NCBI GenBank assembly: GCA_051362555.1 | Contig: CM120648.1 | Location: forward strand, 18,100,587-18,164,586 | From: Lingula anatina | Lineage: Eukaryota; Animalia; Brachiopoda | Length of the DNA stretch: 64,000 nt | Direction: 5' to 3' | In this document: positions 40,019 through 51,830 of the stretch, piece after piece | Numbering within the stretch: the first letter of the stretch is position 1 | How the letters are laid out: every line of letters starts with the position of its first letter | Made by a program: the position numbers and the translations under genes | The notes under the pieces: model-generated | The model's input: the letters and a program-made list of their open reading frames with translations, nothing else | Database searches by the model: none | What the model was told of the DNA's origin: nothing

Positions 40019-40399
40019 TACATTTGACAGATTTGCTGTCTTGTTTTATCTGGGTACAAACACGACAATTTAATTTTCTGTAAAATAAGTCTTCTTTATA
40101 TGACTGAGGATTATTTTTCTTTTTGCCAAGGGATTCCACCTTCTATGTGTTTTTCGTTGGCCATTATACCTTATGTGCCTTGAAGACTGGGCACTTGATA
40201 CCAATTATACTTGATCTTATTAGACGCATTTTCGATGTAATTTATTTATTTTTATACAATATTTATACAATATCCCAAAGTTATATGTTAAAATTTTGTA
40301 AAGAAATTCCTTTATCTTAGCCACGTTTTTGTTTACGTTAAGATTGAGTCATTTTCTGCTGGAATGGGGTTTGATATTCTTCTTCTCTTTATTCTACAG

Positions 40400-40450
40400 C
40401 CGCTCCCCCTGGTGACAGGGAATCACCTGCCTCTCCTGACAGAGAAGCAG
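40400..40450 (+). CDS. Exon 5: duplicated 51-nt linker exon (AAPPGDRESPASPDREA)
   Basis: Paralog of 26123-26173 with conserved acceptor and GTAAGT donor; flanking introns also homologous. Confidence 0.65.
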
Positions 40451-40510
40451 GTAAGTAGTGCACATGTAGTAAAACAAGATTCCGTCTTTTGCTCAGAATC
40501 TGCGAGTGTT

Positions 40511-40552
<42 letters not shown>

Positions 40553-40700
40553 TGACATCACAAAACAAAACATACATTTTCACACTAAACACATATTACA
40601 ACATATATGCAACAGACACAAACTAACATACAGTAGTCTCATTGGACATTAACAGCACAAGGGAGTGACAGAATACGTTGCACAAAGTAACAGTACACAT

Positions 40701-41285
40701 AACACAAACTGATTAACATCGTTACAAATAAACAAACAAACAAACCAGCTTATTATCATATATGAGTCGCACCGGATTCTACATGTTACTACGTGCCATT
40801 TATACCACAGTCACAATATATGTTATTATGCCGATTTTCATAACAGAAAGCATCACTCACTTACATGATCATACAGAACAAATAAGCGTACAATAGTCTC
40901 CACTTAGCTGTGAACCCAAGTACACATAACAAGTTACTACACATGACACGATTAACATATAACGTAACATATAAACAAACAAACCAGCTTTTATCATATA
41001 CAAGTCACACCGGATTCTACATATTACTAGCGTAACACAAAACACAAACTGATTAACATCGTTACATATAAACAAACAAACCAGCTTATTATCATATATG
41101 AGTCGCACCGGATTCTACATATTACTACGTGCCATTTATACCACAGTCACAATATATGTTAATATGCCTATTGTCGGGAATAACAGAAAGCATTACTCAC
41201 TTACATGATCATACAGAACAAATAAGCGTACAGTAGTCTCCACTTAGCTGTGAACTCAGGTACACATAACAAGTTGCTACACATT
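40701..41285. repeat. Direct duplication (period about 340 bp) in the L1 3' UTR
   Basis: AACACAAACTGATTAACATCGTTAC...CACTTAGCTGTGAAC present at 40701 and 41041. Confidence 0.85.
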
Positions 41286-41455
41286 ACAAACTAACGTATA
41301 ACAAGTATCCATGAACAATCTGGTGCAACACAAAAGACTTACAGTACGGACTATCGAGATGTGAACTTAGGTACGCAAAGATATTAGACATGCACAATTA
41401 GCTATGACTCCAAACAGTAAGAGGTTGTCATACCCTCGACACGTATTGTATCATT

Positions 41456-44400
41456 CTATGTAAGTCTAAGTATTAAATTGTGCAAGCATACGTACATGGC
41501 CTTAAGGTGGCCCAAATTCTGTACTGAGTCCAGATATTTTTTAGCAAATTCGACGAAAGAAATAAGTAATAATTGTTTGTTTCTGCACCTAAAGCTGTAG
41601 ATATAGTATTTGATTAACATATTTAGGACATTATACGCATCTTTGTTATTTTCTTTTTTGTCAAGAATTCCAAATATAAATGTTGTTTTCTCTAAAGTCA
41701 TATTCAGCTTGTCTTTGATTACATTTAAAAAGGTTTCAGTTACAGAACAATCCCATAGTACATGAATAATTGTCTCCGTCTCTTTCTCGCACCTTTTGCA
41801 AAGGGGGGTGTTAACCAAACCAGTTTTTGCAAGATAACTATTTGTCGGTAATATATGTTGATTTATTTTATACTGGAACCATTTAAATTTAGGACTGATA
41901 GGAAGGTTGAAAGGCAGTTTATTTATTAGAGACCACTCTTTGTCATTAATATTAAACAATTTATTCCAATTAATTTTGCCCTTTGAAATAGAAGCATTCT
42001 TACTAAGTATTTTATAAAAATCTTGGCAGCCCTTCTTACTTTTAAAGAAGATACTTAAATATTCTGGGAGTTTAGGGAGCATTACTTCAGATTCGTTTAT
42101 ATCATGCAATTTCAAGTATCGCTTAATAATGCTTACCACCCCTTGATATTCTAGGAAGTTGGTCTGAATACCATATCGCTTATTTATTTCTTCTTGTGAG
42201 AAAAAGGTAATTGTTTTAGTGTCTTTTATAAAGTCCCTTATTGCAGATATACCTTTATTAAACCAGTGCTTATAGTATATTACCTTACTGTCTACTCTTA
42301 GGGCTTCATTATACCAGACAGGGGTGTCCAACACGGGCTTGTTTTTCCCCCTTAACTTGTCTTCCTTAACCCTGAGTTCTTTCCATGCAAGTAACACATC
42401 CCCCTAGAACCGGTTTTGGCAAACTTTTAGACATTTATTCAAATACTCATTACCACCCACTGACAAAAGTTCGAAATTTAGATATTTAGCTACGATAATT
42501 TGCCATTTTTTCCTTTTTGTATAAATACGTCTAATCCATGTTAATTTTAGTGATGATATCAGTGAAGGCAAGTGTATCATTTTGATACCACCTTCATCGT
42601 AATTTTTAATAATTATATCCCGCTTAACTTTATCGATCTTTGAGTTCCACAAAAAGTGGAAGAGGTCACTCTGAAGGTCATTGATAAACCTTTGACTAGG
42701 ATTCGGTAAGGATATAAACAAATGATTTAATTGGGAAATTATTAAGGATTTTATAATTATACACTTGCCGATGGGGGTGATCATTCTTCTGTTCCATCCA
42801 TTAAGAATAGACTTAATTTTTACTAATTTCTTATCAAAATTAAGTTTGGGGATTTGAAATAGATTAACATGAAATTCAATTCCTAAAAGATTAAACTGGT
42901 GCTTTCCCCAATCAAGATGCATATGTGGCAAAAATTTTAAATTACTGAACTTCATACGTCCTATCCATACTATTTTGGTTTTATCTTTGTTTATTTTCAA
43001 CCCTGATATTTTTGAAAATTTATCTAATTCAATCATAAGTTCGGATAAAGACTTTTCTGAGCCATCAAGCATCACTGTCGTATCGTCTGCGTATTGAGTT
43101 AATAAAATGGGGGCGTCATCAATAGTGATACTTTTTATATTATTGTTATTCTTGAGTATTATTGAGAGTATTTCCGCACATAAAATAAACAAATAGGGGG
43201 CTATTGGGTCTCCCTGCCTGCAGCCTCTTTTAATGTAAAAGGACTCTGAGAGATTGCCTCCTTGATTTATTGCTGCTTGTGCACCCTTATTAAAAGTATT
43301 TATCCATTTGATAATACTTTCACCAAAGTTAAAAAAAACTAGTACCCTGTCAATAAATTTCCACGACACAGCGTCAAAGGCCTTTTCGAAATCTAATAGC
43401 ACTAACATTCCAGGAATATCGTTATCTTCTGTGTATTGCATAATATCGTATACAGTACGGATACTTTCCCCAATGTATCTCCCGGATATAAAACCGCATT
43501 GATCGTCTGAAATAAGTTTGCCCAGGTATTTCTTGACTCTGGATGCTATGACTCCGGAGGCTATTTTATAGGTAACGTTTAACAAAGAGATCGGTCTCCA
43601 GTTTTTCAAGTATTGCTTGGGCTTTTCACCCTTAGGGAGACACGTAATTACACTTTGTCGCTGTGTAATTGAAAGTTGACCAGTCGAGTAACCCCAGTTT
43701 ATGGATCTAACAACAAAATTGCCGAGCTGTGACCAGAATACCTTAAAGAATTCGACAGTGAACCCATCCGAGCCTGGACTCTTATTACTTTTCATTTTTT
43801 TTCAGAATTTGGGAGGCTTCATTTAGACTAATTATACCCTCTAGTTCACTTGACTCAACATCTGTGAGCCTCAATGGATAATTGTGCGGTAAAATTGTGC
43901 TTAAGTCAACATCAATCACTTCATTAGACTCTGCAAATATCTGTTCGTAGTAGCATTTAATTTCTTTTAAAATTAATGTTTGGGTAGTAATTTCTTCTCC
44001 GTTATCTTTAACTATCTTAGGTATTATTTTTGAAGTGAAATTTCGGTTTTCTAGGTTTAAAAAATATTCAGTGGGTTTTTCACCCTCTTCCAGCCACTTT
44101 GTCCTGGATCTTATCATACTACCCCTTATTTTATTTTCCCTGATGTATTTTAGTTCCTCTTGTAATCTCTCTATATTATTTGCGTTTAGATTGTAATTTC
44201 TCTCCAAATTACTTATTTCTGTTATCAATTTTTTTTCTCTGTCGCCAACTAATTTTTTCTTATAAGATGAAACGGAAATGGATTTGCCCCTGATCTCCAT
44301 AAGTAGGGTCTCAAGAAAAAGTTGATCATTTACGGTAAACTGTATGTCAGAGTCCGGAATTGAGCAGATATTATTTAGGTTATAGACAGGAAGTGCATAC

Positions 44401-45227
44401 TGGATTTTTATATTATTAATAAGTTGTTTTATATTGTCTATATATTCTATATCATCAAGCAGAGAATTATTGAATTTCCATAACCCTTTACCTTTCCTAA
44501 ATGGGTTAAATTCAATATTAATCCCTACAATGGAGTGGTCGGATCTATAACTCGATTCGATAAATGAGTTTTTAATACTTCTTACAAGGTTTTCTGTCAC
44601 AAGGAAAAAATCTAGTCTCGCTTGTTTAATGGGATTTTTTCTCCTCCAAGTATATCTCTTATAACATTCATGTTGTTCTCTATACACATCAACTAAATCA
44701 TAAATTTCAATAAGTTCTAATACTTTTTTTCTTGCTTTTGGGTTGTTTATATGTCGATATGTCTGATCATAATCTATTTCTGGATTTAGAACCAAGTTGA
44801 AATCACCACAGATAATAGAGTACTCATTATCGGTATCCTGTAGCCCCAATTCTATCTGTTTATAGAAGTCGGGAGAATCAAGATTTGGACCATATATATT
44901 GATCAATGTCACTTTTCTATCTTCTAATAAACAATTTTGTAATAGAAAGTTACCAGCATCGTCTTTTTTTTCACTGATTACTTTAACATCGGCAGTGTTA
45001 TTTAAAAGTATAGCGACACCCCTCGAGTTCGACCTGTACGAGCTAAAATAGGCCTTATATCCCCACTCAGACCTAACCCTTGATTCTATTTCAGACGTAA
45101 AATGTGTGTCTTGTAGGCATAGGATATCATATTTCTGTTGCCTTAAATAAGAAAATATGTCTTTCCTTTTTTGTCTATCCCCAAGGCCCTGGCAGTTAAC
45201 GGAAACAATCTTAATACAACTTGTCAT
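41456..45227 (-). pseudogene. L1 ORF2: APE endonuclease, reverse transcriptase, C-terminal zinc finger; two lesions
   Basis: NCQGL, LQDTH, GDFN, RLDFF, SDH; KSPGSDG, WRPISLLN, LDFEKAFD, GCRQGDP, YADD; CKRC...HVLWDC; one extra A in an A8 run near 43795 and an in-frame TAG at 42404-42406. Confidence 0.9.
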
Positions 45228-45455
45228 TTGAATATACGGCTCTAATAAATGTCGAGGTTAGCTTTTTCCCTTATTTTGCTTTTCATCGCTCTCACCTCAA
45301 AACAACTTTTTACCACCACCAGATTGGCACCGTTCTTCCAAATAGCTCCACCTATCATCAACATAAAAATATAATGCAATAAGTACACATTAATTCTACT
45401 AGTGGACGAGTATAAGAAAAAAGGTAAAATTAACATAATTTGTCATTGTAGGCTA

Positions 45456-48449
45456 CCCAGACAGCCTCAATAATCTGGCCCACGTCTGGCCCAGATCTGG
45501 CAACGTCTGGCAATATCTGGGCCAGATTTTGCCAGACACTTGCCAGATCTGGGCCAAGTCTGGCAAAGTCTGGCATTTATGCCACATTTTGCCAGACACT
45601 TGCCAGATCTGGGCCAAGTCTGGCAAAGTCTGGCATTTACGCCACATTTTGCCAGATGCTGCCCAGACTTGGGCCAGATATAGTACTTTCATTTTCAATT
45701 TTTATTTTCTATTTATTTATTTTTTATTGACCAGTGAGCTGAATGCATTGAACTGACGTCATTTGATAAATTTTGATTTAATTTATCTCTCTCTTTTTTC
45801 TTCAAAGTCCCCTCCTAAGTGTGCTATTTGTTTAATTTGACTTGACATTTGAATGAATTCACTGATCTAAAACTTTTTTGGACTACTCGTTCCGCTGTTG
45901 TAAGATTCCGCTTTTTATGCTAAGCCGGTCAAGGACCCGGATGTAGCGTTTCTTAGAGTTATGGATATGAAAAAAGCACAAGCGTATCAAACTGATACAA
46001 TTTCGTTGAGTGATTTGATTCGTGGTGCGATTTATTTCGAAGGCATCAACACTGGCGACGAGGATAAACACTAGTGCAAAACTGATGAGTCAAGTTTCTT
46101 TGAAAAAAATGGAGAAAAAATGTGAAATTACGGAATTCGAACCGTACAGAAGTCCGGAGACATTGGGTCACGCTCGACGCGATGGCTAGACAGTTTAAAC
46201 TTTTCGCTGACGGAAAAAGATTGATCTTTTCAAAACCAACGAACGGCATGAATAATGAACAAAGATAGAAAATTAAAAATACATGACAAAGGAGACGCGC
46301 GCTTATGTTGTATTCAGCAGGGACAGGTGTACAACTTACAAGATATTTTCAGGACTCTCCCAAACACAGGTTAGAAACATGAATATACATAAGACAGTTA
46401 ACGCTTTGAATGAAATTGGAACACCAGAAACTGAGTATGATGAAACTGAAGTCATTTGACAAACCAAGCCAGTCTAAACATTACGAGTTTAGACATGAAA
46501 AACGAAGTAGAAACTCCCTGACTGAGAAAACATGGAACGTTGGATCACTTTGCAAAACTCTGCAAAACTGAAACTATTATTCATGTAAATGACAGCTTTG
46601 AACATGAAAATCCAGGAGTGCATATACATTTGGTGTGGGAACCAATGCACAGAAGACATGGAGGAAATAGAGGAGGTGTTAATCTCAGTGTATTACCAGA
46701 TTCAGGTGCATATTGTAATATCATTGATGAAAATACATGGAGAATGCTGAAATCCAAGAAAAATAAATGTGGCTCTTGTGGAGGACCAGAAAACAAACAG
46801 TATTATTCATGTACACGTCTGAGAAACCTTTAAAAGTGAAGGGAACATTTGAATATGACGTAAAGGCAAGCAAAGGAAGAGACCAGTAGTAGTGAAAGGA
46901 CATGGGATTTGATATGAGTTGATTAGTTTTGAGAATTTTCAGTGTGGTTTAAGGAATAAAAGTTGGAGTTCATATGCTATTCTGCAAATGTTTGAAAAGA
47001 CATTTTAAAGACTGAACTGTCAATTAACATGTTTTGAAAGGACCGTTTCTCTCCAAGAAAGGAAGGGATGTTGTGTTTGGACTTGACATTTGAATGAACT
47101 TTTGTTAACTTGGTAGAGTTACTTGTTCCATTGTTGATTCCTTTAATAATTATAAGCTTGTCAAGGAGGCGGGTGTATCATTTCTTAGTGTTATGGATTT
47201 GAAAAAAGCGCAAGCATTGCAAACTGGTTCAATTCATTGAGTGATTTGATTCGTGATGTGATTTAATTCAAAAGCATTGATACTGGGGTTTGTTTTTGTG
47301 CACATGTAATTCTCTTTTAATTGTACATCTATATCTGTGCTGGAGTATACATATTTTTTTTTCAGAATTTACATGTATGTACAGTACTGTAGCCAGCATG
47401 CAAGTTGAATTGAAACAGTTACTGCATGGTTATTTATAATTTTGTTATAACTCTCCATCATCTAAAAAAGAATGTTTTTTCATTCATTATTCAAGATTTA
47501 TTCATTACAAAACTATATTCATTAGTGATTATTATTATTAATGATATGTTTGAATTAGTTTAAAAATGACAATGTATAATATTATTTAGGTTGAGGTGTG
47601 CAAAAATATTTCCCCCTCAAATCCCCCCCCCCATGTACATGCATAATTAATTACAATTTTTGTAATTTGTGTTAATTCAGATTCGATGAGCAGCTTTGTG
47701 TTGAAAAAAAAATTGTTGTTATAACTGTTTTCTTTACATGTATGTAAGTGACATTTCCTCCTGTTAAGTGTCTGTATATTTGCCTTTTTGCAGTGTGTTT
47801 TTTTTTTTTTTTTTCAAACATACAAATTGTTTTGTACAAAAAGACAAGGAGTGGCCCTTAATTTGTTGCATGTTAGTTGCCAGCAAGGTTATATAATGTG
47901 TAATAATTTTGTTTAGGCTTTTAGCACAGAATAAATACTTGAATCTTGAATCTTGTATGTCTTTTTTTATAGTTATCTTATTGAATAATTAAAAATAATT
48001 AAAAAAAGAAAAAAAAAAACAATCTGGGCCATATGTGGTCCATGTCCGGCCCTAATCTGGCCCACATCCGGCATGCCATACCTTTGCCAGATATTGCCAG
48101 ATCTGGGCCAGATCTGGCCACATGAGCAAATGTGAAATAATAAAAAAAAAACAATCTGGGCCATATGTGGTCCATGTCTGGCCCTAATCTGGCCCATTTG
48201 AATATGATCTGGCCCATATCTGGCCCACATCTGGCATGCCATACATTTGCCAGATATTGCCAGATCTGGGCCGACATCTGGCCATATGAGCAAATGTGGA
48301 CTGGGCCAGATGTGGCAATGTCTGGGCCAGATCTGGCCCAGACATTGCCACATCTGGCCCACATGTGGCAAGCCATACCTTTTGCCAGACATTGCCAGAC
48401 GTTGCCAGATCTGGGCCAGACGTGGGCCAGATCACTGAGGCTGTCTGGG
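45456..48449. mobile_element. Non-autonomous DNA transposon (CMC/EnSpm-like ends) inserted in the L1 inter-ORF spacer
   Basis: TIR CCCAGACAGCCTCA / TGAGGCTGTCTGGG, TA on both flanks, long subterminal arrays of TCTGGC/GCCAGA repeats at 45456-45680 and 48020-48449. Confidence 0.8.
45829..47282 (+). mobile_element. Degenerate Gypsy-like LTR retrotransposon relic
   Basis: Diverged LTRs of about 220 bp (45829-46051 and 47069-47282), PBS-like TGGCGACGAGG at 46053, PPT AAGAAAGGAAGGGA before 47069, aspartic protease remnant LPDSGAYCNIIDENTW. Confidence 0.7.
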
Positions 48450-49318
48450 TATCTTATACCGTAGTGCAACAGCTTATCCGAGGTAAGGGCGTACGCCTTG
48501 AACCTCTCGCACTTACACTTGCTAGGTATTCCCTTTCACTTACACAGAATAACATGAGCTGTAAACTGTCCATTTTGACATACACACTTACACAAACGTT
48601 CACACACACACATATCCACAATACACGAGTCATCACTACAAAATACCTAGGACGTACTACGAGTCCTAGAAAAGACAAAGCAGCGGTAACACTCACGACG
48701 CTTGCATACATCAACTAGCCGTCGGTCACGTGCACAGACACGGTGATTGTATTGTTGTTACAAACTGTAAAATATCGGTATGTTCTATTTTACACATGTC
48801 GGCTGGGACGCCAAGGGGCCCTTTTTGCGTTTGTGACATGAGCGAATAATAATAGGAGTTTAGTTCCCCGTCATTGCCTATTAAGCAATATATATATTGA
48901 GCAATGTGCACATAATCGTAGCCAAATACTCCCAATAGGTACGATGTCCCCTTCTATTCGGAGCGTACGTATACCAACCGACAATGAAAATTGAGCATTG
49001 TTGAATACATCTTATATTTGCATGTATTGTCAATAGCTTAGCTAGTAGTACCACATGTATAACAGCATACCGTATCTCGAGAAACGAGAGTGTGTGGTCA
49101 TCCGGTGCCCACATCAGCAAGACGCCCCGTGAATACCTGTATTATAAAAATACATGATCAATAACTCAAAACTATATACAATTATTACTATCAAGTAAAC
49201 AACCGAGACACAGATAATCTGTACATATATTTACCATAGAAGCAGCTCACCCACACAGGCGTTTGACTATATATGTATATATACATCTTATCAAACAAAC
49301 TAACCTAGCCTACACGAT

Positions 49319-50551
49319 CTAATCTAATTGGAGAGCGTCAATTGCGGACTCTTGATAATAACTGAATCTCTCTGAATTTAAGTGCTGTCCAACCACCCTT
49401 GACACTACAATCAATCTATTTTCTACCCTCTTGGCTTCTAGGAGGTTGGCCAGTGTTTTGGCTACACTTACATCGTTATTGTCATTGTAATATACTGTCC
49501 AGGCACCGCCACTTTTTATTCTGTAGGCGTAAACAAGCGAGGCTCCGCTTACTTGGCCGCCTGCTATTATGGAGGCAAGCGCAGATTGTGCGTCTTCGAC
49601 TGAATTCACTCTTGTAGAGATTCCCATAAAGGAGTTACCCTTTGCTTTAGTTTTCTTTTCAGAGAACTTTATTTCATGTCGATGGTTTTTCCTATGTGTT
49701 GGTAGGTTTTTTAAACAGTTATCGGGCTTGCGATCATCTGGGGTATATAAGGAGTTATTTATATAGAGTTTTTCGCCCACTAACCTGTGTTTGATATTTT
49801 TTGCCCTTAATTCTTTCATGACGGGATAGAGCGTTCTTCTTCTTTCTTCCACCTCCTTGGGATACTGGTCAGTTATCCTTATGTAGGTGCCCTTCAGATT
49901 TTTGGTATATTTCATAACAGTTCTTTTGTCATGGAATGTCGTACATTTTGCTATTATTGCCCGCGGTTTGGGTCCGTTAGTTACCGATCCAATGCGATGA
50001 ACCCTATCAAAAGACACGGTTTCTTCCGCGGGGATCTTCATCTGTTGAATCAGCACCTGTCTCAGTGTATTCTCCACGTTTTCCTGCGGTCCAGTCTCGG
50101 GAATGTTATGAAATAGTAGGTTATCTCTCATGGATCTCGTTTGTAGATTTATCATTATCTGGTGATCCGTGTCGACTTGTCTTTGTAGGCTTTGTACTCT
50201 CTGCTCGCTAATATTGAGTTGTTCTCTTAGCACATTGTTCTCAGTTTCAAGAGCACTTACTTTCTCGTCCAGTTGGGTCATATTTTCATCGAGACTTTTA
50301 ACCGAAATCTCAACTTGTTTGAGAGAATCTTTGAAGGTTTTTGTAATGGCGTCCAGTTTATCTTCGAACTTTGCCAAACAATCACTGATAATGTCCCTGA
50401 TTTCGGTATTGTCTGTAATGAGATATTTGTCACCCTCTTTTTTTCTTGAGCTTTTATCCATATTGCTCTCTTTGATGTGGAGTTTGGCCAACGGTGTGTT
50501 TTCTGTACTGGATGATGAACTATGGGAAGTCCTTTGTCTTCCCCGTTTCAT
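49319..50551 (-). CDS. L1 ORF1 (coiled coil, RRM/CTD-like) with extra C-terminal IMPACT/UPF0029-like domain, 410 aa
   Basis: Heptad region, SMRDNLLFHNIPE, DRVHRIG...PRAIIAK, ITDQYPKEVEERRRTL; tail KGNSFMG...VYAYRI...ENRLIVVSR...HLNSERF. Confidence 0.85.
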   Translation of the reverse strand: MKRGRQRTSHSSSSSTENTPLAKLHIKESNMDKSSRKKEGDKYLITDNTEIRDIISDCLAKFEDKLDAITKTFKDSLKQVEISVKSLDENMTQLDEKVSALETENNVLREQLNISEQRVQSLQRQVDTDHQIMINLQTRSMRDNLLFHNIPETGPQENVENTLRQVLIQQMKIPAEETVSFDRVHRIGSVTNGPKPRAIIAKCTTFHDKRTVMKYTKNLKGTYIRITDQYPKEVEERRRTLYPVMKELRAKNIKHRLVGEKLYINNSLYTPDDRKPDNCLKNLPTHRKNHRHEIKFSEKKTKAKGNSFMGISTRVNSVEDAQSALASIIAGGQVSGASLVYAYRIKSGGAWTVYYNDNNDVSVAKTLANLLEAKRVENRLIVVSRVVGQHLNSERFSYYQESAIDALQLD

Positions 50552-51292
50552 TGTTTCATTGGCGCGATTTTTAAACGCACAAAAAATTCTCTTTTATCGT
50601 CACAGTACCGGGAACCCTGCCCCTTTCCGCTGTCATTTCACTTTATATTCATCCTCACACAGTCAGCCACAGTCCAACTACAACCGATCATATATAATTT
50701 AAGTATTTTATCACCGTGGCCCCAGCTTGAGTTCTACACCGCCGCCATCTTGTTCTCGTTCCGAGTGTTGTTCTTAGCTTGTCGATTAAGTATGTGAGTT
50801 CCTGCATTCTTATTTTCATCAAACTGTATTAATAATGTTACATTAAAATTGACTATACCTTACAATTTTAATTGATTTTAATTAATGTTAAAACATTCAG
50901 TGTTTATCACCCCGTTATGTTTTGAGCTTACCCACTTGTATTCATCAGAGAGGATACATTTTTAAGAAAAAAATTTTTTTTCGCAAATTGCCGTTAAACC
51001 TTCAGAAACAGACGAAAGCTTCTAATTTATTTGATAACTGTTTCACAAAGTTAATTGACACTAAACACATTCAAATTTTGTGAATAATTACGATACTTTT
51101 TTATGTTAAAAAGTTTTATTTTAACTGCACTGTTTATTGTACAGTCCTTTTCAAAGGTGAAAGTGGATCTCATACCTCTGGGGAAGAAAACATGAGAAGA
51201 ATAAGAATGTTGACGATATGTCGATGTATGAACAGTCCCTGACAAATGAAATAAATTAGATTGAAAGCAAGTCTATAAAGATTAAGGTCTAG

Positions 51293-51360
<68 letters not shown>

Positions 51361-51584
51361 TTTGAAGAAGGCACATCAGCTGAAAACTCAATCGGGCGCT
51401 TGATACCAATTATACTTATTACATGCATTTGCAATCTAATTTATTTATTTTTATACAATATTTATACAATATACTGCGGGATTAATACGATGATTTAGAT
51501 GAATATGCACGCATTGCAATACATAACAATATGCATTATGCTAAAATCAGTTAGTTCGGCCATAGCTTATTGTATTCTTCGCAG

Positions 51585-51830
51585 TGGCAGAAAGGGACCA
51601 TCTAGATGATATTGACAAGGAGCTATTGGAAAAAATTGAGAAAATTGCCCGAGGAGAAGATGTGGAGCCAGAGAAACAGGTCACAATTTGGGATTTTGCA
51701 GGACAGGATGTCTACTACACCACGCACCAAACATTCCTCTCAGAGCGGATCATCTACTTGTTGGTATTCCGACTTGACCAGGACCTCGATGATAAAATCC
51801 GTGTATACAGGGGAGAGAAGACACTGAAAG
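51585..51830 (+). CDS. Exon 6: Roc G3 region
   Basis: VTIWDFAGQDVYYTTHQTFLSERIIYLLVF is a canonical Roc motif; CAG acceptor, GTATTG donor; phase 1-1. Confidence 0.9.

Follow-up and report, generated by a model that had tools for sequence, protein, structure and literature searches.

What is half of a translation regulator doing at the end of a retrotransposon protein? The question is raised by a stretch of 64,000 nucleotides from the brachiopod Lingula anatina (assembly GCA_051362555.1, contig CM120648.1, positions 18,100,587 to 18,164,586 of the forward strand), hereafter called the window. An initial annotation had proposed that the first open reading frame (ORF1) of an L1 retrotransposon, a long interspersed nuclear element (LINE), has captured in this place a domain resembling IMPACT, Yih1 and YigZ, known in Pfam as UPF0029. 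The presence of a C-terminal UPF0029/IMPACT domain on an L1-type ORF1 is confirmed by the analysis presented here, which also concerns the age of the fusion, the state of the Lingula copy and the possible role of the domain.

The locus is covered on the minus strand by a single long open frame (49319-50551) of 410 amino acids and a stop, intact and uninterrupted. Residue 294 begins at 49672 and residue 410 finishes at 49322, exactly the interval originally assigned to the C-terminal residues 294-410, and the strings from which the likeness had first been read (KGNSFMG, VYAYRI, YYNDNNDVSVAKTLANLL and ENRLIVVSRVVGQHLNSERF) are all present in the translation. This likeness goes beyond chance. UPF0029 (PF01205, called Impact_N in newer Pfam releases) is the sole Pfam family matched above threshold by ORF1, with an E-value of 6.2e-8 and a score of 33.0 bits (curated cut-off 27), residues 306-407 being aligned to profile positions 3-107 of 107. 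With phmmer, the last 123 residues alone retrieve yeast Yih1 (6bqi, E 2.4e-5). The top phmmer match of these 123 residues, a 'flagellin hook IN motif' (6xi1, E 1.6e-6), was rejected, being the sum of four weak repeats that each reach an E of 21 or worse over 45 residues. The ORF1 protein stops three residues past the PF01205 match and lacks DUF1949. It also lacks the RWD domain, as had been stated at the outset: the Pfam table of the window protein (P0001) contains none, and fused proteins carry PF01205 alone whereas cellular IMPACT proteins carry PF05773 and PF01205. Among the 88 family members scanned, RWD does not figure in the 25 most frequent Pfam families, so that at most single members could carry one.

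The fold tells the same story. An AlphaFold2 model of ORF1 built on 88 family members reached a mean predicted local distance difference test (pLDDT) of 87.2 and displays a disordered N-terminus, a helix spanning residues 48-140, then an alpha/beta region (141-272) and, beyond a linker of low confidence, a compact alpha/beta domain at the C-terminus; the predicted disorder covers residues 1-46, N-terminal to the coiled coil. Searched as a whole with Foldseek, the model first retrieves the trimer of human L1 ORF1p, the ORF1 protein (2yko, E 5.3e-9 over 187 columns), followed by Yih1 (4.0e-6), TT1547 (1.1e-4) and YigZ (8.3e-4). The domain folded alone reached a pLDDT of 92.8. Its Foldseek TMq values are 0.73 with TT1547 (2cve), 0.81 with YigZ (1vi7) and 0.68 with Yih1 (6bqi), nothing else being comparable. 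A VIA-align search of this domain-only model against 48,161 chains produced Z-scores of 15.6 for 2cve (root mean square deviation 1.6 Å over 103 residues), 14.6 for 1vi7 (1.8 Å) and 9.4 for 6bqi, the next match scoring 6.2. The weaker tail of the VIA-align list contains RNase PH/exosome subunits, EF-G domain IV, Lon and GHMP kinases, whose fold class we take to be ribosomal-protein-S5-domain-2-like. A profile match to UPF0029 (Pfam) and structural matches (Foldseek and VIA-align) were therefore both found.

A trivial explanation would be that the fusion is an artefact, either a chimera of assembly or gene modelling, or a chance Pfam match on low-complexity sequence. The window copy scores just 6 bits over the Pfam cut-off and the current NCBI model (P0002, 372 amino acids) exits the frame at a GTAAGT inside the domain (49470-49480), ends in 12 other residues and drops the second half of the domain. 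However, the frame is uninterrupted in the window and recurs over its full 410-residue length in an older public protein record (P0227); DNA contigs from an independent run match the window exactly over 49282-49713 and 49731-50136; PF01205 is matched by 88 of 88 full-length aligned relatives (alignment A2, best E 2.2e-29); and the fold Z-score of 15.6 is hardly that of a chance resemblance. The alternative C-terminal tail of P0002 is not encoded in one piece on the minus strand of the window, and no joint at the internal GTAAGT appears among the RNA joints listed. Frame, independent contigs, relatives and fold matches together refute the artefact, to which we attach a negligible probability.

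The portion preceding the domain, initially described as the usual ORF1 core, is of L1 type. Residues 86-257 match human LINE-1 ORF1p (2ykp) at E 1.1e-5 in a phmmer search of solved structures by sequence, 2yko is the first structural match as mentioned above, and 2w7a, the central RNA recognition motif (RRM) domain of ORF1p, is also matched by the model over 99 columns (Foldseek). The Pfam models for L1 ORF1 (the Transposase_22 set) stayed below cut-off for the window ORF1, where just Tnp_22_trimer appeared (E 0.35, 11.6 versus 22.2 bits), and none of them ranks in the top 25 families by frequency across the 88 scanned members.

The fusion extends well beyond the window. In a word-index search, 23 of the 85 relatives of ORF1 are annotated with PF01205 in the source collection; the best relative is a Lingula anatina protein with 99% identity and the next ones are 34% identical. 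An exhaustive search of 1.84 billion representatives returned 6066 proteins at E <=0.001, including 27 at <=1e-30. Hidden Markov models for the ORF1 core and the C-terminal domain were built from the first ORF1 alignment (A1): the core was recognized in 226/226 stored relatives and core plus domain in 92/226, the domain always being C-terminal. On metagenome contigs from JGI and ENA, 91 of 407 pattern matches encode a relative; 80 were kept and 17 of these loci carry core and domain in one frame. The ESM Atlas contributes two clusters (score 0.94) of 242 and 57 members, with PF01205 on 78% and 96% of them; all are eukaryotic and Mollusca is the commonest phylum among the few members having a record. 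Other L1 families with a UPF0029-bearing ORF1, for which the initial annotation had suggested a search, are therefore present in protein, metagenome and Atlas collections alike.

Five unrelated metagenome contigs (L004, L005, L010, L018 and L020) place the fusion upstream of an intact ORF2 of 1111-1286 amino acids, the distance from the ORF1 stop to the open ORF2 frame being 331-944 nt, an unusually long spacer. An endonuclease and a reverse transcriptase are encoded in all five and a zf-RVT domain in three. The ORF2 of L005 matches human L1 ORF2p at E 2.7e-122 and R2 at 1.3e-18. With the intact ORF2 of L005, L010, L018 and L020, the window ORF2 shares 30-34% identity, and with part of that of L004 23%, the same level of identity as for ORF1. 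Some proteins of the family (P0089, P0289 and P0080) stand in unexpected records: LINE ORF1 fusion proteins go under the source labels 'Fe-Mo cluster-binding NifX family protein' and 'putative IMPACT family translation regulator', and one ORF1 relative lies in a record named as a metagenome-assembled genome of Candidatus Thiodiazotropha and probably represents host DNA in a symbiont bin.

Where does the domain come from? A profile of 17 LINE-borne domains (A3) recovered Yih1 residues 142-251 at 4.6e-27 and bacterial TTHA1053 at 4.1e-6; YigZ was not reached in this sequence search. Among the longer collection proteins, the same profile retrieved the fusion family first and then animal IMPACT proteins with RWD and UPF0029 (about 1e-33 to 1e-30) from scorpions, a hemichordate, oysters, a scallop, amphibians, reptiles, birds and mammals; a search of shorter proteins yielded fragments of the fusion family only and is uninformative as to origin. 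A tree of 51 domains, 31 LINE-borne (that of the window included) and 20 from IMPACT, was computed unrooted and without outgroup. One branch parts the LINE-borne from the IMPACT domains with an SH-aLRT (Shimodaira-Hasegawa-like approximate likelihood ratio test) support of 98, and the IMPACT side brings together arthropods, hemichordate, molluscs and vertebrates. The ORF1 core was treated likewise (IQ-TREE with a mixture model, 65 rows, unrooted, without outgroup): the fusion rows, 29 out of 29 with the window protein among them, lie opposite 19 rows with other tails of at least 60 residues, with a support of 87.6. A FastTree of 216 ORF1 cores has 2 label changes between fused and other proteins, compared with at least 32 in 200 shuffles.

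The domain of these LINEs is likely to descend from a single old event, in which the ancient-domain half of an animal IMPACT gene was captured and the RWD half was not, and these unrooted trees lead us to infer that it was not copied recently from a molluscan gene. The window domain itself falls within a starred group of ten LINE-borne domains, which indicates that it was inherited with the element and not captured anew. The original wording, that this L1 ORF1 'has captured' the domain, is thereby amended: the fusion is real, while the core and domain trees point to an old feature passed down within a large lophotrochozoan LINE lineage instead of an event in this element.

The frame belongs to a full-length LINE, complete in its anatomy yet non-autonomous, whose parts are listed in the table below. 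The element is bounded by target-site duplications (TSDs) of a 12-bp sequence, GAACAACACTCG, found twice in the window against 0.03 occurrences expected by chance. With its perfect 12/12 TSD and its pure poly(A), the insertion looks young. ORF2 was recognized in Pfam by Exo_endo_phos (1.5e-12), RVT_1 (1.9e-37) and zf-RVT (1e-9). It is interrupted by a single frameshift (near 43790-43800) and a single in-frame stop (42404-42406), and the copy can therefore no longer transpose on its own.

Table. Features of the LINE copy and of its ORF1 protein; positions are those of the window. UTR, untranslated region; CTD, C-terminal domain; TIR, terminal inverted repeat; APE, apurinic/apyrimidinic endonuclease
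Feature	Position	Strand	Evidence or remark
ORF1, 410 aa + stop, intact	49319..50551	-	406/410 residues same as public protein P0227
ORF1p coiled coil, residues 48-140	50132..50410	-	AlphaFold2 single helix, pLDDT 87-98; weak coiled-coil Pfam matches
ORF1p RRM + CTD, residues 141-272	49736..50131	-	phmmer to 2ykp; Foldseek to 2yko, 2w7a
Flexible linker, residues 273-299	49655..49735	-	block pLDDT 56-62 for residues 271-290
C-terminal UPF0029/IMPACT ancient-domain fold, residues 300-410	49322..49654	-	Pfam PF01205, domain-only model, VIA-align, Foldseek
Full-length L1-type LINE copy, 10,247 nt including the nested 3,008-nt insertion, ~7.2 kb without it	40515..50761	-	TSD, poly(A)
5' TSD	50762..50773	-	12-bp direct repeat GAACAACACTCG
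3' TSD, right after the poly(A)	40503..40514	-	12-bp direct repeat GAACAACACTCG
5' UTR, 210 nt	50552..50761	-	span from 5' TSD to ORF1 ATG; sense RNA in bin 50426-50826
Inter-ORF spacer, ORF1-proximal	48457..49318	-	ORF1 stop to TIR insertion
Nested DNA transposon-like insertion, 72-nt TIRs, foreign to the LINE	45449..48456	.	inverted repeat arms
Inter-ORF spacer, ORF2-proximal	45228..45448	-	between TIR insertion and ORF2
ORF2: APE-type endonuclease, reverse transcriptase, zf-RVT; broken	41456..45227	-	Pfam on three consecutive frames
3' UTR with ~340-bp tandem repeats (40695-41288)	40551..41455	-	direct repeat families D5, D6, D7, D13
Poly(A) tail, 36 T on the + strand, AATAAA before it	40515..40550	-	sequence run

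The gap of about 4 kb between ORF1 and ORF2 is due to the nested insertion, without which the spacer of the window copy amounts to about 1.08 kb. The TIR arms of this insertion (45449-45520 and 48385-48456) are 93% complementary and accompanied by subterminal GGCCAGATCTGG-like repeats, and none of the five short ORFs within it had a Pfam match. Its interior (46015-47618) shows the highest RNA cover in the 12 kb examined, up to a depth of 58; the reads there show numerous variant letters, along with small indels and sharp loose ends resembling the exon borders of a multi-copy transcript. The tandem repeats of the 3' UTR belonging to families D5, D6 and D13 are 94-96% alike. Outside the element, a (TC)14 tract followed by 37 C occupies 51293-51360, 520 nt upstream of the LINE 5' end. 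A direct repeat of about 85 nt (40189-40273 and 51394-51472, 91-96%) flanks the LINE on both sides without adjoining it; it is not a TSD and is probably another dispersed repeat.

Within its family, the Lingula domain is an outlier. The family motif reads S.FQGH / A.HN.YAYRI / DDGE.GAG / V(T/S)RW.GG.HLG..RF and that of the window copy SFMGI / ASL-VYAYRI / DNNDVSVAK / VSRVV-GQHLNSERF, with SL- for THN, DNND for DDGE, S.A for G.A., V for W and LN for LG; the degenerate DDGE mentioned in the initial annotation is thus borne out by comparison with the family. The invariant His is lost, as are two residues of DDGE (the second Asp and the Glu), the Gly of both G.AG and LG, and the Trp; the hydrophobic core positions, YAYRI, R385 and the RF motif are kept. 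Counted over conserved domain columns, the window copy retains 16/31, the lowest of the 88 members, compared with a median retention of 84% in the other 87, where single motif residues are present in 70-99%. Its core is ordinary in this respect (27 of the 34 core columns conserved at >=70%, rank 31 of 88). The branch lengths agree: in the domain tree the window end branch is the longest (2.48 versus a median of 0.38), and in the core tree it measures 0.59 versus a median of 0.72. The window domain has changed fast at positions that are fixed in cellular IMPACT, in YigZ and in other LINEs; judged from its sequence, the window copy retains the fold and ancestry of UPF0029 and has probably lost the conserved site.

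Such a domain might be a functionless, decaying relic, its frame open only through the youth of the copies. The low column retention beside an ordinary core, the long branch and the vanished His, Asp, Glu, Gly, Trp and Gly are what decay would produce, as is the position of the differences between P0227 and the window (G193R, A350T, V387L and A406V), three out of four of which fall in the domain; the perfect TSD and pure poly(A) supply the youth. Selection was assessed both in the family and within Lingula. At the family level, the most similar pairs of metagenome loci were compared, 14 pairs being considered. Synonymous sites are saturated in nearly all pairs and Nei-Gojobori dN/dS was therefore replaced by the proportions of non-synonymous (pN) and synonymous (pS) differences. 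In the most similar pairs, pN of the domain is 0.07-0.31 against a saturated pS of 0.74-0.96, and several pairs show more conservation in the domain than in the core (72% versus 59% identity between L001 and L011, for example). By this comparison of sequences, the domain is under purifying selection in the family.

Within Lingula, contigs from four DNA runs, each of a different study, were compared with the window over 49150-50750, 40 of the 227 difference rows being considered; for RNA, the rows considered were 40 of 350, of which 10 lie in ORF1. At the 33 distinct ORF1 sites listed, 23 variants are synonymous (P 3e-9) versus 21% expected at random, a neutral expectation that transition bias would somewhat raise. 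In codons 300-410, 9/12 of the variants listed are synonymous versus 23% expected (P 2e-4). A 430-nt contig of run X10 crosses the whole domain with 23 differences and no gap, and among the rows listed no indel falls within ORF1 whereas nine cluster at 49237-49311, just 3' of the stop. The purifying selection on the domain proposed as a check in the initial annotation was thus encountered both as low pN in the family and as mostly synonymous variation in Lingula. Together with the retained hydrophobic core, YAYRI, R385 and RF and the confidently predicted fold, the Lingula variants make a relic improbable in our estimation. Since the site is lost and the constraint continues, a derived or structural role of the domain is most likely in Lingula.

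The transcripts and the host gene bear on another possibility. RNA was judged from the raw reads of two stranded poly(A) runs labelled as the same species (X12 and X13), about 6% of each being read. A joint from 40446 to 51581 on the plus strand, with GT..AG borders and 17 reads in two runs, skips 11,134 nt, from which it follows that the whole LINE lies antisense within an intron of a plus-strand host gene. Host exon sequence was observed around 40398-40446 and 51581-51830. Beside the host splice donor, at 40397-40450, reads (up to 11 in run X15) jump back by 27-51 nt with a few extra letters in between; this pattern may reflect a tandem-duplication allele or back-splicing. Over 48421-50826, all reads have their first mate on the plus strand, at a depth of 1.6-8.5; their direction is opposite to that of the host-gene exon reads and the RNA is thus sense to ORF1. 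Reads of this direction are absent from 50827-51227, as expected if the transcript begins at the 5' end of the element itself. Depth is at most 0.97 over 41604-44811 in ORF2 and 1.2-3.9 in the bins 44812-45613 that hold the ORF2 start. At the ten ORF1 sites listed, all reads differ from the window, and at the six of these sites that are also listed in the DNA comparison (49811, 49829, 49889, 49895, 50060 and 50545) they agree with the form of runs X3 and X8. A further joint on the minus strand, from 49069 to 45349 (GT..AG, five reads), removes the nested transposon together with 613 nt and 99 nt of spacer; it corresponds either to a new intron in the LINE transcript or to a copy with a shorter spacer.

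An intact ORF1 next to an ORF2 with a frameshift and a stop, a spacer split by a 3-kb transposon, sense poly(A) RNA over ORF1 and the proximal spacer with little over most of ORF2, variants that are mostly synonymous, and a gene name assigned by NCBI (LOC106163369) would all be expected of an ORF1-derived host gene, domesticated while the rest of the element decays. The perfect TSD and pure poly(A) speak for a young insertion instead, and up to 6-7 distinct contigs over single places in one run, alleles and paralogues mixed, indicate several copies and not one conserved locus. A synonymous excess is also expected of paralogues issued from active master copies, and the word-index search found no orthologue in another species, the next relatives being only about one-third identical. 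We regard domestication as quite unlikely.

On the evidence assembled so far, we consider it highly probable that the window holds the ORF1p of a TSD-flanked L1-type LINE with an IMPACT-type UPF0029 domain, and that this holds for a whole family. Several observations weigh against this reading or loosen parts of it. As the Pfam models for L1 ORF1 remain below threshold, the L1-type assignment rests on sequence and fold matches to solved structures and on ORF2. As alignments of family members went into the AlphaFold models, the fold match is not independent of sequence homology. The core-tree support for a single capture is moderate (87.6, not starred) and no tree has an outgroup; in the FastTree of 216 rows, the window core was set alone outside the fusion clade. 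The independent capture or recombinant in Lingula suggested by this last placement was not upheld by IQ-TREE with a mixture model. The Lingula variants listed mix alleles and paralogues, and the P0227 differences are absent from the rows listed, hence the constraint on the domain may be weaker than 9/12 suggests. Over the domain the RNA depth is 1.65, down from 8.5 in the 5' part of ORF1.

What the domain does for its carriers can be approached through cellular proteins. Yih1/IMPACT is described as binding ribosomes and actin, its ancient domain contacting or folding back on the RWD domain, through which GCN1 binding and GCN2 inhibition run (PMC13094546). The invariant UPF0029 residues lie in loops on one face, proposed as the site for a conserved partner (PMC4503747), and in both papers the function of the ancient domain is still called elusive (PMC4503747, PMC13094546). 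Canonical LINE copies keep this invariant site without the RWD half, and hence probably use the ancestral binding activity of the domain. The captured domain could then serve as an accessory module by which the particle of ORF1p and RNA is tied to the translation machinery: contact with the translating ribosome, or with its RNA, would aid the loading of the protein onto its own mRNA during synthesis, and might help ORF2 translation across the long spacer. That the domain of canonical members tethers the particle to ribosomes or polysomes, favouring cis-packaging or translation of ORF2 across the spacer, is our tentative proposal, held at somewhat less than even confidence; it is weakened by the ribosome and actin binding of Yih1 being located at least partly in the linker according to both sources (PMC4503747, PMC13094546). 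Binding or turnover of a conserved UPF0029 ligand is a possibility to which we give a rather low probability. That the domain interferes, for example by way of RWD domains, with the GCN1-GCN2-IMPACT axis seems unlikely in these canonical members, and extra RNA binding equally so.

The initial annotation had raised, beside an additional nucleic-acid-binding module, the idea of a mimic, in which the LINE-borne domain imitates IMPACT and damps the GCN1-GCN2 stress signalling that expression of the element would trigger. The domain is indeed nearest to animal IMPACT; contacts between ancient domain and RWD within Yih1 mean that an orphan domain could in principle engage RWD in trans (PMC13094546); and L1 ribonucleoproteins are reported to be linked to the integrated stress response in mouse germ cells (PMC10289378). 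Nevertheless, GCN1 binding and GCN2 inhibition use the RWD domain, which was not found in the LINE proteins, and the conserved surface residues of the window copy are lost. The loss of these residues makes a mimic less likely in the window copy than in its relatives, and overall we find this explanation doubtful. A broader version would have this lophotrochozoan L1 lineage grip the translating ribosome or RWD sensors such as GCN2, with a double benefit: translation and cis-packaging of the element would be secured, and the stress response that it provokes would be blunted. This is a speculation that we consider improbable. If true, these LINEs would be a natural experiment showing what the universal UPF0029 domain binds.

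Independently of its function, the fusion matters in several ways. The ORF1p classes described so far are L1-like, Jockey-like with zinc knuckles, and esterase-bearing (PMC3905857), and a complete L1-type core followed by the IMPACT ancient domain constitutes a fourth architecture beside these three. No description of a LINE ORF1 with a UPF0029 domain was found in the full-text literature, subscription journals, Repbase reports and supplements lying outside the search; the fusion proteins themselves are already in public collections under an automatic PF01205 label, where they are mislabelled as IMPACT-family regulators or NifX. As the fusion demonstrates, LINEs can recruit parts of the host translation-control apparatus. 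UPF0029 is conserved from bacteria to animals, and a large, fast-evolving family free of RWD opens a new way into the function of the domain. The Lingula lineage, with its fold kept and its invariant site dropped, allows constraints to be compared with those of canonical members.

How, finally, does this element compare with known systems? It is an L1-clade LINE by its ORF2 domains, its match to L1 ORF2p, its TSD and its poly(A), and does not qualify as autonomous. Its first protein is an L1-type ORF1p by fold, domain order and partner ORF2, not by Pfam thresholds, and the tail is UPF0029 by profile and fold, not by invariant motifs in the window copy. With human LINE-1 (2ykp, 2yko, 2ldy and 2w7a for ORF1p) it shares a long N-terminal helix followed by RRM and CTD, an ORF1 located upstream of an ORF2 with APE endonuclease and reverse transcriptase that matches L1 ORF2p, a TSD and a poly(A) tail. 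It differs from LINE-1 in the extra globular domain of 110 residues after the CTD, in a core too diverged for the Pfam L1 ORF1 models, and in the long spacer, 331-944 nt in relatives and about 1.08 kb in the window.

The whole protein is neither IMPACT, lacking RWD, nor YigZ, lacking DUF1949. Its tail is homologous to the ancient domain of IMPACT/Yih1 (profile matches of about 1e-31 to animal IMPACT and 4.6e-27 to Yih1, fold Z 9.4); unlike in IMPACT/Yih1, both the RWD domain and the IMPACT linker are missing, the domain is joined to the RNA-packaging protein of a mobile element, the LINE-borne domains occupy their own side of the tree and the invariant residues of the window copy are mostly replaced. 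Bacterial YigZ and TTHA1053 have the same domain fold and are the best structural matches (Z 14.6 and 15.6), with a far weaker sequence likeness (4.1e-6 for TTHA1053, YigZ not found) and a DUF1949 that the LINE protein lacks. The closest parallels in organization are the ORF1p with an SGNH esterase (CR1/L2-type) or with CCHC knuckles (Jockey-type), in which a host-derived globular module is likewise carried by a self-associating ORF1 protein; here, however, the module has the S5-domain-2-like UPF0029 fold and has been added to a complete L1-type RNA-binding core instead of replacing it.

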